Sequence record: NC_049395.1
Length of the DNA stretch: 30,584 nt
Source of the DNA: Escherichia phage ESSI2_ev015
Direction: 5' to 3' (one strand)
Shown here piece after piece: positions 7,435 through 26,324 of this stretch. Each line of letters begins with the position of its first letter. The stretch's first letter is position 1. The notes beneath the pieces are model-generated. The model was not told the DNA's origin, did not search any database, and worked only from the letters and a program-made list of their open reading frames with translations. The translations under genes and the position numbers were made by a program.

Positions 7435-9398
7435 GCGCCAAGCTCCTGCCATTCCATAAGCTGGGATGGAGAAAGTGCTTCTTTGGTATGGAAATGCACT
7501 TCACCAATTTTCCGGCTGTTATCGGTTACGGATTTACTGTTGCTGCTGATTGTTTTGCTGATACCACCTTTATCCACACCTTTTAAATCACCACCCGTTG
7601 ACAGTGTATTTCCGGTTAATGGCTGCGTGGTTTCACTGGCCAGTGAAATATCCACGCCGGGAATTTTATTCAGTTTCTGAACAATCCAGTTCCACGACTT
7701 AAGAAATCCCCCTTTGATTGACTTCCAGACATTATCAAACAGCGACATAATGCCGGTGGCCATTCCCTTTAGCGCCTCAGACGGTGAAAATCCTGTCAGC
7801 AAAGAAATAAAGCTGTTCCATCCTTCACTGATATATTGCCAGGCTGAAGCAAAGATCCCCGCCAGCCATTTCACCACGGCGGCACATGTCTGGAAGGCTT
7901 CGGTATTCACCACCGCTGTTTTTATCGTGTCCCAGTGCTTAACCAGCAGATAACAACCGGCAACCAGCAGTGCAATGGCACCAATCACAAGCAGGATCGG
8001 CCAGCTCATCAGGTTGATACCAATTCCGGCCATTATTGCGGCCATGCGTACCGCCAGTAACGCACCGCGCAAGAACTTCAGCGTGGTATTCCAGGCGATT
8101 ACCGCTATTTGTGCCAGCCAGACAGTGGCCGTGTAGATTTTAGTAACCGCCGTTAACGCCACCCAGACCCCGCGCAATCCCATCATGATGAATCTGGATA
8201 CCCCCATCACGATATTGGCCACCGCACCCACGGCGGCAAAGCTCAGTAATGCCATCGACGCATAACCAATCACACGGGCAATGTTAGGAAATAACTGCAT
8301 CCAGCGGGCAAAGGTCTGCCCCATATCAGCCAGGCGATTCAGAACCGGATACAGCACCGGGATCAACGTCAGTCCGATCACGGTTTGAATGGCTTTCAGA
8401 ATTTGCACAAAGCGATCCCACGGCTTAACCATTTTTTGTGCCATTTCCTGGGTACGCTTCAGGCCGTCCGCGCCGCCCAGTTCGGTGATGTTCCGCTGAA
8501 GTAACGCGACATTGCCGTAAAGATGTTTAACCACTGCCGAACTGTCACCAAAGGCTGCATCCAGCTCCGCCTGGGCTTTCAGGTTCCCTTCAAGGCTTTT
8601 GCCATATTTGCCCTGCAACTTGATCAGCATTTCAGGCATGGACAGCATTTTGCCGGTAGAGTCAGTAAAGGACAGCCCCAGCTTTTTAGCGCCATCAATC
8701 GCACCGGTCATAAACCCTTCATAGGCGCTGCTGGCTTCCGTTCCCAGCGTCCGCTGAAGTTGCCCCAGCACGGCCAGCTGTTCATCCAGCCCCACGCCGT
8801 AGTTAGTCCCGACACCGCGCGCACCTTCCATCAAATCCTTGATAGTGGCCATTTCTGTGCCAAAGGTTTTGCGCATATAAACCATCTTGCCCGCCAGCTG
8901 TTCGGCAAATTCAACCTTACCCAGTCTGGCCGCATCGGCGGAAAAGTTACCGAACATCTGCCCCATAAATTCCGCCGTGTCCGCCGCAGTGGACTTGAGC
9001 GCAAACGCCAGGGTATTGGCGACTTTCGTCACCTTCGGCAGCTCATTACCCGTCAGTCCGGCAATGGAAGCGTTAATATTTTCCGTGGATCTAACGAACT
9101 CCACCGCGCTTGCGCCATAGGTTGTACTGAAACGCAGGGCATCACGCTGAACTGTCTTAAGCGCGGAATCATCGATCCCTTTTGCGGCGGCATCATTCAG
9201 CGCGTCATACATTTCAATTGCCGGTGATAACGCGCCTTTGATCGCCATCCCGACACCGGCCAGCGCCACCGCGCCGCCGCCAATCTGCATAAAGGCCGCT
9301 TTTGATTTTTCCGCAAAGCCGGTGACGTTACCCTGCGCCTGTTTTAACGGGCGGGATAATTTATCAATCAGGCTTAATGTAAAATCTAATTGTTTCAT
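7431..9398 (-). CDS. Tail tape measure protein
   Basis: 655 aa, Ala/Gly-rich helical N-terminal half plus hydrophobic segments (e.g. LLSFAAVGAVANIVMGV); lies directly downstream of the frameshifting chaperone pair. Confidence 0.8.
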   Translation of the reverse strand: MKQLDFTLSLIDKLSRPLKQAQGNVTGFAEKSKAAFMQIGGGAVALAGVGMAIKGALSPAIEMYDALNDAAAKGIDDSALKTVQRDALRFSTTYGASAVEFVRSTENINASIAGLTGNELPKVTKVANTLAFALKSTAADTAEFMGQMFGNFSADAARLGKVEFAEQLAGKMVYMRKTFGTEMATIKDLMEGARGVGTNYGVGLDEQLAVLGQLQRTLGTEASSAYEGFMTGAIDGAKKLGLSFTDSTGKMLSMPEMLIKLQGKYGKSLEGNLKAQAELDAAFGDSSAVVKHLYGNVALLQRNITELGGADGLKRTQEMAQKMVKPWDRFVQILKAIQTVIGLTLIPVLYPVLNRLADMGQTFARWMQLFPNIARVIGYASMALLSFAAVGAVANIVMGVSRFIMMGLRGVWVALTAVTKIYTATVWLAQIAVIAWNTTLKFLRGALLAVRMAAIMAGIGINLMSWPILLVIGAIALLVAGCYLLVKHWDTIKTAVVNTEAFQTCAAVVKWLAGIFASAWQYISEGWNSFISLLTGFSPSEALKGMATGIMSLFDNVWKSIKGGFLKSWNWIVQKLNKIPGVDISLASETTQPLTGNTLSTGGDLKGVDKGGISKTISSNSKSVTDNSRKIGEVHFHTKEALSPSQLMEWQELGA

Positions 9399-17094: not shown

Positions 17095-17256
17095 ATCCCC
17101 CCTGATTTATTCACTGACCCTGCGAACTCAATTATTGCCAAATAAAACTGCCGCTGCATTACGCTTTATTCTGAACAGTTCGGTTATAACGCTTTACCGA
17201 ACAGAGACGAATTAACACCACCGTTTTTTCATTACAGCCACGGCATAATTATCCGC
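17095..17256. promoter_or_regulatory. Divergent late promoter region (P-Q rightward, O-N-M-L leftward) with dyad element
   Basis: 162-bp intergenic region between divergent operons; imperfect dyad cagTTCGG-N13-CCGAAcag at 17176-17204, roughly 50-60 bp upstream of the P start. Confidence 0.4.
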
Positions 17257-24732: not shown

Positions 24733-24799
24733 TTTGGTTTCCTTAAGGCAAAAGAATCCCCGGCCACTTGAACCGTGGCCAAAAAATTCAGGCTGTTAA

Positions 24800-25201
24800 T
24801 TAGTGAAAAGTGGGTTGTACTGTGGCGGCTGAGTAGTTCGGTGCCGGAATCAGGTGAAGCTCATAGGTTGTCCGCCACCACTCCTGGATCAGCGCTTTTA
24901 TCTCGCCAACACCCAGCGCCCCGGCTGTATAGAAAATTGCACGAATCCCCGCCAGCGCTTCTATCTGGGCTTCTTTGCTTTCCGCTTCGCGATACACGCA
25001 GCACCAGAAAGCGGCATTGATCGCCAGCCAGTGACGCGGATTTGTCATGTGTTCAGTGTCATTGAAGAAGAACGGATGCAAAGCGATGCGGCCATTTTTA
25101 CTGGTACTTTTCGCTGCAAACGCTACAGCGTAGTTATGCGGGACACCCCACACAGCCAGTTCAGCCCCCAACGATTTACCCTCAACGGAAATAATGGTCA
25201 T
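24800..25201 (-). CDS. Hypothetical early protein (133 aa)
   Basis: ATG with AGGGGAA Shine-Dalgarno; start overlaps the stop of the upstream ORF by 1 nt. Confidence 0.45.
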   Translation of the reverse strand: MTIISVEGKSLGAELAVWGVPHNYAVAFAAKSTSKNGRIALHPFFFNDTEHMTNPRHWLAINAAFWCCVYREAESKEAQIEALAGIRAIFYTAGALGVGEIKALIQEWWRTTYELHLIPAPNYSAATVQPTFH

Positions 25202-25629
25202 TAGTGATTCCCCTGTTGCTGGAACTTATGGACGATATGAGGCGCGATCACCATCTGCACCCCGCTACTGCTATAAATTGGATGTGCCTTTTTGATCGGG
25301 CGGTTCGCGGTGCGCTTTGAAAAATCGCTGTCACGTAAACTGCCGAAACCTTCAAACGTTAACCGCGCCCGTGAAATGCCCTGGCGCAGTTGAATCATGT
25401 CCCGATAGCCCAGGCGTTCATAAAGCTCCCGCCAGCAGCACTTGCTTAAGTGGGCTTTAAATGCCCCGGTACCAGATGTAACCGCAGCAGCATGAAGCAC
25501 TACACCCCGCCACTCTGGTGTTAAGTTGTCCCACCATTCAGCGGCCTCACTGCTTTCGCTGAAGTATTTGCGGCGGATCTGTTTTAAATGCTCCAGCCCG
25601 CGCTTTTGCTGTTCCTGGCTAATCGCCAT
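25201..25629 (-). CDS. Hypothetical early protein (~142 aa; track shows a 207-aa GTG-initiated version)
   Basis: First ATG of the track ORF is at 25629 (MAISQEQQKRG...) with AGGGGG Shine-Dalgarno; the 65-codon N-terminal extension starts at GTG and overlaps a better-supported small ORF in another frame. Confidence 0.4.
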   Translation of the reverse strand: MAISQEQQKRGLEHLKQIRRKYFSESSEAAEWWDNLTPEWRGVVLHAAAVTSGTGAFKAHLSKCCWRELYERLGYRDMIQLRQGISRARLTFEGFGSLRDSDFSKRTANRPIKKAHPIYSSSGVQMVIAPHIVHKFQQQGNH

Positions 25630-25637
25630 AACGCCCC

Positions 25638-25811
25638 CTATAACCCCATCAGACGACGCCACCACGGGCGGCGCGGCTGCTGGCCATTGAATTTGTACAT
25701 GTGGCCAGGGTTCCAGCGCTGACCGTTCGGCAGTTCTATCCAGCCCGTTGAACCACTCGGCAACTGCATGGCTGGTGATTCTTTTTTCAGGTAAGTCACA
25801 AACGCTTTCAT
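25638..25811 (-). CDS. Small ORF (57 aa) immediately downstream of cII, absent from the ORF track
   Basis: ATG ~10 nt after the cII stop with GAGGGAA Shine-Dalgarno; MKAFVTYLKKESPAMQLPSGSTGWIELPNGQRWNPGHMYKFNGQQPRRPWWRRLMGL; its TAG stop is 9 nt before the next ATG. Below the track's 60-aa cutoff. Confidence 0.4.
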   Translation of the reverse strand: MKAFVTYLKKESPAMQLPSGSTGWIELPNGQRWNPGHMYKFNGQQPRRPWWRRLMGL

Positions 25812-25820
25812 GGTGTTCCC

Positions 25821-26324
25821 TCACATCAGGCCGGTGGCATTGGTTGTGACCAAATCCACCGCAGCGGCCAGAACCGGCGCAGAGTGAATACGGCTTTCAA
25901 CGGTATAAGCCAGAACGGATAAGCTACGGATTGCATCGCGGGCGCGATCCAGAATTTGAGTACGGCGGGCGGCGGTCATATGGCCAGTTGATACGGCTTC
26001 CCCAGCAATCGCGCCTACACACGCAGTGGCGCTAAGCGCACACAACTGCATGTTGGCTTCAGTGGCATTGTTCACCGGCACGGATGGAAGGCAGTTAATC
26101 TGACCTAACATCCCATCAAGTAAACGCGCATCCTCGGTGTAATCCGTGATAGCCAAAAGCTCATCACAGGTTAAGCGGTGCGGTTGTGCTGGGTTCAGTT
26201 TGTTGCGCAGGATCTGCGACTTCATACCAACGGCTGCGGCCACATCTTCAAGATTGTGCTCAGTTGCAAATGCTCGGCAAGCCGCATCAAAGTGCGCATG
26301 TTTAGAGGTCTGGTAATCAAACAT
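25821..26324 (-). CDS. cII: CII-like lysogeny establishment regulator (186 CII-like)
   Basis: 167 aa (186 CII is about this size as I recall), second gene of the early lytic operon after the Apl/Cox-like gene; AGGGAGAGG Shine-Dalgarno. Confidence 0.55.
   Translation of the reverse strand: MFDYQTSKHAHFDAACRAFATEHNLEDVAAAVGMKSQILRNKLNPAQPHRLTCDELLAITDYTEDARLLDGMLGQINCLPSVPVNNATEANMQLCALSATACVGAIAGEAVSTGHMTAARRTQILDRARDAIRSLSVLAYTVESRIHSAPVLAAAVDLVTTNATGLM

Follow-up and report, generated by a model that had tools for sequence, protein, structure and literature searches.

A 57-Residue Fil Homologue Probably Follows cII in Place of a 207-Codon Open Reading Frame in Escherichia Phage ESSI2_ev015

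Which gene follows cII in Escherichia phage ESSI2_ev015 is a question to which the open reading frames (ORFs) of the sequence give two conflicting answers. We analyzed one stretch of 30,584 nucleotides (record NC_049395.1), referred to here as the window, which represents a Quadragintavirus-like member of the Peduoviridae. On its minus strand, a 207-codon ORF starts at a GTG that overlaps the cII stop codon. A 57-codon ORF lies across its upstream part in another frame, and an ATG further along the longer ORF could start a protein of 142 residues. An earlier note on this DNA had described the 207-aa ORF, the 57-aa ORF with a GAGGGAA Shine-Dalgarno (SD) sequence just after cII, and the 142-aa ORF behind an AGGGGG SD sequence, and the sequence and an ORF listing down to 30 aa bear out all three. 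The gap between the 57-aa stop and the 142-aa ATG, given there as 9 nt, is in fact 8 nt. As the note had suspected, the small ORF is easily missed; its absence from the ORF track has no other cause than a length below the default limit of 60 aa. The features of this region are as follows.

25821 to 26324, minus strand: gene for a cII-like transcriptional activator, 167 aa (Pfam PF06892, Phage_CP76, E = 1.1e-46; CII in the annotation of relatives)
25816 to 25822, minus strand: SD sequence GAGGGAA of fil, overlapping the cII stop codon
25638 to 25811, minus strand: fil homologue, 57 aa, a real small gene (PF10893, PHROG, the identical protein WP_000643373.1, third-position variation)
25634 to 25639, minus strand: SD sequence AGGGGG of the 142-aa gene, overlapping the fil stop codon
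25201 to 25629, minus strand: 142-aa gene (phrog_33841, 7.9e-40; own AGGGGG site; same frame as the 207-aa ORF)
25201 to 25824, minus strand: 207-aa ORF, whose GTG (25824 to 25822) overlaps the cII stop (GTGA)
25630 to 25824, minus strand: 65-codon upstream extension of the 142-aa frame, a chance open frame, noncoding in that frame

The initiation signals in this region are arranged around the stop codons. The cII stop (TGA, 25823 to 25821) lies inside GAGGGAA, which has a calculated anti-SD duplex energy of -6.1 kcal/mol and stands about 5 to 6 nt before the fil ATG at 25811 (upstream context TGAGGGAACACC-ATG). A GAGG/AGGA/GGGG element is kept at this position in 14 of 14 relatives, phage 186 included. 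The fil ORF ends with TAG (25640 to 25638), and the 8 nt GGGGCGTT separate this stop from the ATG at 25629. The AGGGGG site has a duplex energy of -9.3 kcal/mol, which places it in the top ~1% of window positions, and the GTG at 25824 is preceded by no SD sequence (-1.7 kcal/mol). An SD sequence built around the stop of the upstream gene is typical of translationally coupled genes.

We consider it very probable that cII is followed by a Fil homologue, which would block septation, and then by a separate 142-aa gene, whose product may be a divergent relative of gpB. Ribosomes finishing cII would meet the SD sequence built around the cII stop and start the 57-residue Fil at the ATG at 25811; the fil stop would in turn be embedded in the SD sequence of the 142-aa gene, with its start at the ATG at 25629. 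The 207-aa ORF would then be a mere stop-free off-frame stretch running upstream of that ATG. During lytic growth, the small Fil protein would stop host septation, as its homology with the Fil protein of phage 186 suggests, and it would most likely do so by interfering with the divisome, by analogy with other phage division inhibitors. The 142-aa protein might act in early replication or host takeover.

The assignment to the Fil family comes from several profile searches. The 57-aa protein matches Pfam PF10893 (Phage_186_Fil, formerly DUF2724) with 40.1 bits (E = 3e-10), against a curated gathering cut-off of 25 bits; the alignment covers profile positions 1 to 34 of 56 and only the N-terminal 37 residues of the protein. 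It also matches phrog_7623 at 4.5e-30 and, over residues 4 to 56, the "cell division inhibitor" family phrog_816 at 3.3e-8, and neither it nor the 142-aa protein has a match in NCBIfam. PF10893 is found in 77 of the 77 database clusters homologous to the 57-aa protein, many of which are named "phage filamentation protein Fil family protein." In an alignment of the Fil proteins of the window, ev129, ESSI-2, YenM_324, and 186, the invariant columns are F4, L8, S12-P13, G23-W24-I25, G30, R32-W33, and P35, all of which are present in the window protein. A search of PDB sequences with Fil returned a single chance match (E = 0.46), and the AlphaFold model (pLDDT, 60; pTM, 0.23) is too poor to be suitable for a structure search.

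The phage 186 record confirms that 186 carries fil and dhr right behind cII, as the earlier note had stated, and it says of fil that "overexpression blocks cell division." The alignment with fil and dhr that the note had proposed held for the first gene and failed for the second. The 186 Fil and window proteins are 39% identical over residues 3 to 35 (33 residues; E = 6e-7; hhalign probability, 90%), whereas Dhr compared with the 142-aa protein yields an hhalign probability of 0.4%. Dhr, which matches phrog_6069 only, was rejected as a relative of the 142-aa protein.

The window Fil combines a conserved N-terminal core with a short, variable tail that is basic and aromatic. The C terminus is polymorphic (window positions 25638 to 25690 and L001:2140-2244), with forms of 57, 60 to 66, and 75 aa; the 75-aa form differs by an 11-codon indel and a 2-nt indel and reads through the SD sequence and ATG of the next gene. 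The DUF2724 proteins of ESSI2_ev040 and ESSI2_ev129, which belong to the same genus, have this length, and their first 41 codons are nearly identical to those of the window, but their long C termini overlap the next gene by 11 nt, unlike that of the window Fil. Over the first 25 kb, the window and ESSI2_ev040 (genus Quadragintavirus) share 98.7% identity, but this value drops to about 89% at the fil region, where the tail takes the other form, and this difference in sequence identity indicates a local mosaic patch. The window tail PRRPWWRRLMGL has no relation to the C-terminal tail of 186 Fil and differs from one close relative to another, so the function of Fil may have drifted.

This variability bears on the possibility that the 57-aa ORF is a real Fil family gene with another host takeover or regulatory role, its core being a generic binding module and its tail setting the target. 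We regard such a role as unlikely. It would suit a likeness to 186 Fil that is confined to about 35 residues, as well as tails that are wholly different and are swapped even between near-identical phages, and the phenotype in 186 is one of overexpression alone. Yet the operon position and the SD/stop architecture match those of 186 fil, no family-invariant residue is missing, and the match to the cell division inhibitor PHROG speaks for the role in septation.

Whether the 207-aa frame is used as well, or instead, was judged from 14 loci for the Fil ORF and from 12 relatives that include the start of the downstream gene. The Fil ORF is intact in 14 of 14 loci. The earlier note had named conservation of the full 207-aa frame in related phages, its first 65 residues included, as the evidence that would count for the long ORF; in 10 of 12 relatives, stops or frame shifts interrupt this N-terminal extension. 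Apart from the window, only L006 and L012 have an extension that stays open all the way to the GTG; elsewhere, stops or frame changes cut it after 3 to 36 codons, and at 91 to 97% identity two sequences (L004 and L010) carry a stop 25 codons upstream in the 142-aa frame. Relatives differ in the spacing of the fil stop and the following ATG (8, 9, 11, or -11 nt), so the relative frame of the two genes is not conserved. A programmed frameshift linking fil to the 142-aa gene was also weighed and is rejected, because spacing and relative frame vary in this way.

The Fil frame is under purifying selection. Among the eight short-form sequences, 13 of 17 variable sites fall on Fil-frame third positions (binomial P = 3e-4), as do 20 of the 25 in the first 41 codons of 12 sequences (binomial P = 2e-6). 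Relative to the window, changes read in the Fil frame are 21 synonymous and 8 nonsynonymous; the counts for the 207-aa frame are 5 synonymous, 21 nonsynonymous, and 3 to stop. The comparison of third-position GC and codon usage that had been proposed for telling the frames apart did not separate them clearly, with log-odds per codon of 0.157 for Fil and 0.065 for the extension, both positive. The extension has no Pfam or PHROG match. When the 207-aa sequence was used as a query, its coverage by the 94 homologous clusters never exceeded 69%, corresponding to the 142-aa C-terminal part and leaving the extension uncovered. Among the 39 representatives that an exhaustive profile search found, the extension was carried solely by one evidently miscalled fragment (P0201). 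Off-frame stop-free runs of at least 65 codons number 34 within the 33 long ORFs of the window; hence, a run of this length is not unusual.

These data also weigh on dual coding within the lineage, in which Fil and the 142-aa protein would be joined by a minor, N-terminally extended isoform of the latter that starts at the GTG through GTGA coupling. The GTGA stop-start overlap could permit reinitiation without an SD sequence, and three closely related sequences share the open frame, but it is not kept open in the 91 to 97% identical relatives with the upstream stop, off-frame runs this long are common in the genome, and the extended frame has no selection signature, which makes dual coding highly improbable. 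A young overprinted isoform in a sublineage is likewise a less likely reading of the 207-aa frame. That the 207-aa ORF is the true single gene, with the 57-aa ORF as a chance overlapping frame, has next to no likelihood and is already refuted by the comparative data: although the window and its two relatives have the frame open, a database fragment is called in the extended form, and the codon log-odds of the extension is slightly positive, the GTG lacks an SD sequence, the extension is broken in most relatives and without a family match or cluster coverage, the substitutions in its frame are nearly all nonsynonymous or to stop, and the curated family match sits in the overlapping frame.

The preferred model, a separate fil followed by the 142-aa gene, is also the one found in public annotation. 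The region matches prophages in 23 of 5,426 complete Escherichia coli genomes at 91 to 97% identity, and PGAP calls cII, a Fil family protein, and hypothetical proteins in all 23. In the records of relatives that we inspected, a Fil coding sequence (CDS) of 174 nt is followed by a CDS of 429 nt, which equals the 57-aa plus 142-aa model, and gene callers on metagenome contigs likewise call the 57-aa gene. The "phage filamentation protein Fil family protein" WP_000643373.1, from a prophage of E. coli strain 1919D3, is identical to the window protein in amino acids and neighborhood; with no difference of substance, it is the same protein, already annotated. The earlier suggestion of a genuine small gene in the fil/dhr slot and a wrong 207-aa model is supported by PF10893, by PGAP, and by the broken extension. 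The call is correct but ordinary, as the Fil family and the exact protein are already catalogued in RefSeq.

Other public records treat this locus differently. In Cronobacter phage ESSI-2 (NC_047854.1), a 63-aa ORF lies directly past cII at 25136 to 25327 (L003:1925-2116) and matches PF10893 at 3.5e-12; neither the RefSeq nor the GenBank record carries a CDS over this Fil homologue, which makes it a real case of a missed gene. Overlapping CDS calls further downstream in the ESSI-2 record look doubtful. The fragment P0201, from a near-identical phage, is a miscall of the GTG ORF that consists of the 65-residue extension and the true N terminus. In another database entry, P0167, Fil is fused in frame to the N terminus of the 142-aa protein; this entry comes from one lineage in which the fil stop is lost.

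The main value of the result lies in annotation hygiene: a 60-aa cut-off hides a conserved host takeover gene and displays a false 207-aa ORF, and the same error exists in public data, with fil absent from the ESSI-2 record and the extended miscall in P0201. The biology adds nothing new, although the 57-aa variant might be a handy minimal form for finding the target of Fil.

The second gene of the preferred model encodes a member of a small unnamed family, phrog_33841. Its 94 homologous clusters are 114 to 158 aa long, and all of them begin at or close to the ATG at 25629. The protein has no Pfam match, a profile search of PDB sequences with it gave no match, and a scan of genome contigs with it gave no confirmed locus. 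AlphaFold models it with a mean pLDDT of 66 and predicts helices across the first 90 residues (pLDDT, ~80) and a disordered C terminus of low confidence. Foldseek found no match to this model with E < 1 in PDB and BFVD.

The gene occupies the same slot as P2 B and 186 dhr, and the slot of P2 B is alike in lying past a small ORF and before a terminator and a DUF2732 gene. P2 gpB binds and loads the host DnaB helicase and is needed for lagging-strand synthesis, as a note in the P2 record also states. BLASTP detected no similarity between the 142-aa protein and P2 gpB (PF26815). A profile of the 142-aa family against the single gpB sequence gave an E value of 0.0013 (probability, 18%), and an hhalign profile-profile comparison aligned residues 26 to 108 collinearly with gpB residues 29 to 102 (E = 1.4e-4; probability, 52%), which is below conventional significance. 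Two families, phrog_14551 and phrog_5349, are matched both by gpB and by remote members of the 142-aa family. The C-terminal half of gpB (residues ~100 to 166) has no counterpart in the 142-aa protein, the alignment ending at gpB residue 102. These profile comparisons make a distant relationship between the 142-aa protein and the N-terminal half of P2 gpB plausible but leave it unproven. The gp07 protein of Yersinia phage vB_YenM_324 (L002:2283-2657), which is labeled "replication protein GpB," is 30% identical to the 142-aa protein and belongs to its family; despite the label, it has no BLASTP alignment with P2 gpB.

Some clusters share residues 1 to 53 of the 142-aa protein and then run into unrelated phage sequence. 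BLAST mapping and junction sequences from three different remnant prophages place the break at one position.

25469 to 25470, no strand assigned: recurrent deletion junction within the 142-aa gene

In all three remnants, the deletion begins after TCTGGTA (minus strand), between 25470 and 25469, and divides a GGTACC palindrome into GGTA and CC (junction loci, L016:20199-20235, L017:3159-3173, and L019:~3160). The junction partners differ, being window position 8059, window position 17095, and a tail fiber gene. The first group of remnants comprises E. coli Combat13F7 and one metagenome contig, the second is fused to the start of a scaffold gene, and the third is fused into the tail fiber gene. 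Each remnant keeps DNA that is missing from the others, so the deletions are independent events. Microhomology at the junctions amounts to only 2 to 6 nt, and there is no strong hairpin at 25469/25470. GGTACC occurs 13 times in the window compared with 3.9 expected from shuffles, and none of 100 shuffles reached 13. A KpnI-type cut as the cause of the hotspot is unsupported, as the motif occurs at these 13 places and the partner junctions lie outside such sites.

It is rather doubtful that 25469/25470 is a hotspot of site-specific breakage or illegitimate recombination, for which a strong topoisomerase site or a nuclease target would be candidates. If this were true, full prophages at the mntS locus would be reduced time and again to remnants retaining int, cI, cox, cII, and fil. 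In the relatives whose flanks were inspected (L016, L017, and L019), the prophage adjoins mntS. In Combat13F7, it lies between mntS and mntR, with extra nonphage genes between the remnant and mntR.

Downstream of the 142-aa gene, two further features complete the operon.

24800 to 25201, minus strand: 133-aa gene (phrog_3935, 3.4e-52; hypothetical protein in relatives)
24757 to 24785, minus strand: terminator-like hairpin with a T-run (pattern scan; synteny with the 186 and P2 annotation)

The 142-aa gene stop and the 133-aa gene start overlap (TAATG); the 133-aa product has no Pfam match. The hairpin sits between the 133-aa gene and a DUF2732 gene, and no RNA family in Rfam matches anywhere in the window. 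The early lytic operon of this P2/186-like phage runs in the order cox/apl, cII, fil, 142-aa gene, 133-aa gene, terminator-like hairpin, and DUF2732 gene.

Small early phage proteins that cause filamentation are known from other phages, namely, Kil of lambda, DicB of Qin, and Gp0.4 of T7 (PMC3961180, PMC6206680). Their likeness to Fil is one of functional analogy only, without a sequence relationship; the targets named for these proteins are FtsZ/ZipA and MinC. In phage 186, a fil::lacZ translational fusion serves as a reporter of pR, so the fil start is translationally functional (PMC7708051); our literature search for a mechanism of Fil found nothing beyond this reporter use.

The closest parallel to the window locus is phage 186 itself. 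Its Fil protein (NP_052282) is small, at 75 aa compared with 57 aa in the window, and is encoded by the first gene past cII in the early lytic operon, where fil starts 8 nt past the cII stop and its SD sequence overlaps that stop. The arrangement in which an SD sequence surrounds the stop of the upstream gene, at both the cII/fil border and the border of fil with the next gene, is conserved from phage 186 to the window phage. The 186 fil gene overlaps dhr by 14 nt, whereas the window fil does not overlap the next gene. The order of genes matches beyond fil as well: phage 186 has fil, dhr, tR1, and DUF2732, with the window hairpin at the position of tR1, and P2 has orf78, B, a terminator, and DUF2732, with the window hairpin at the position of the putative terminator past B. 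Within this common order, the 186 Fil and window proteins share the core F..L...SP...GWI...G.RW.P.
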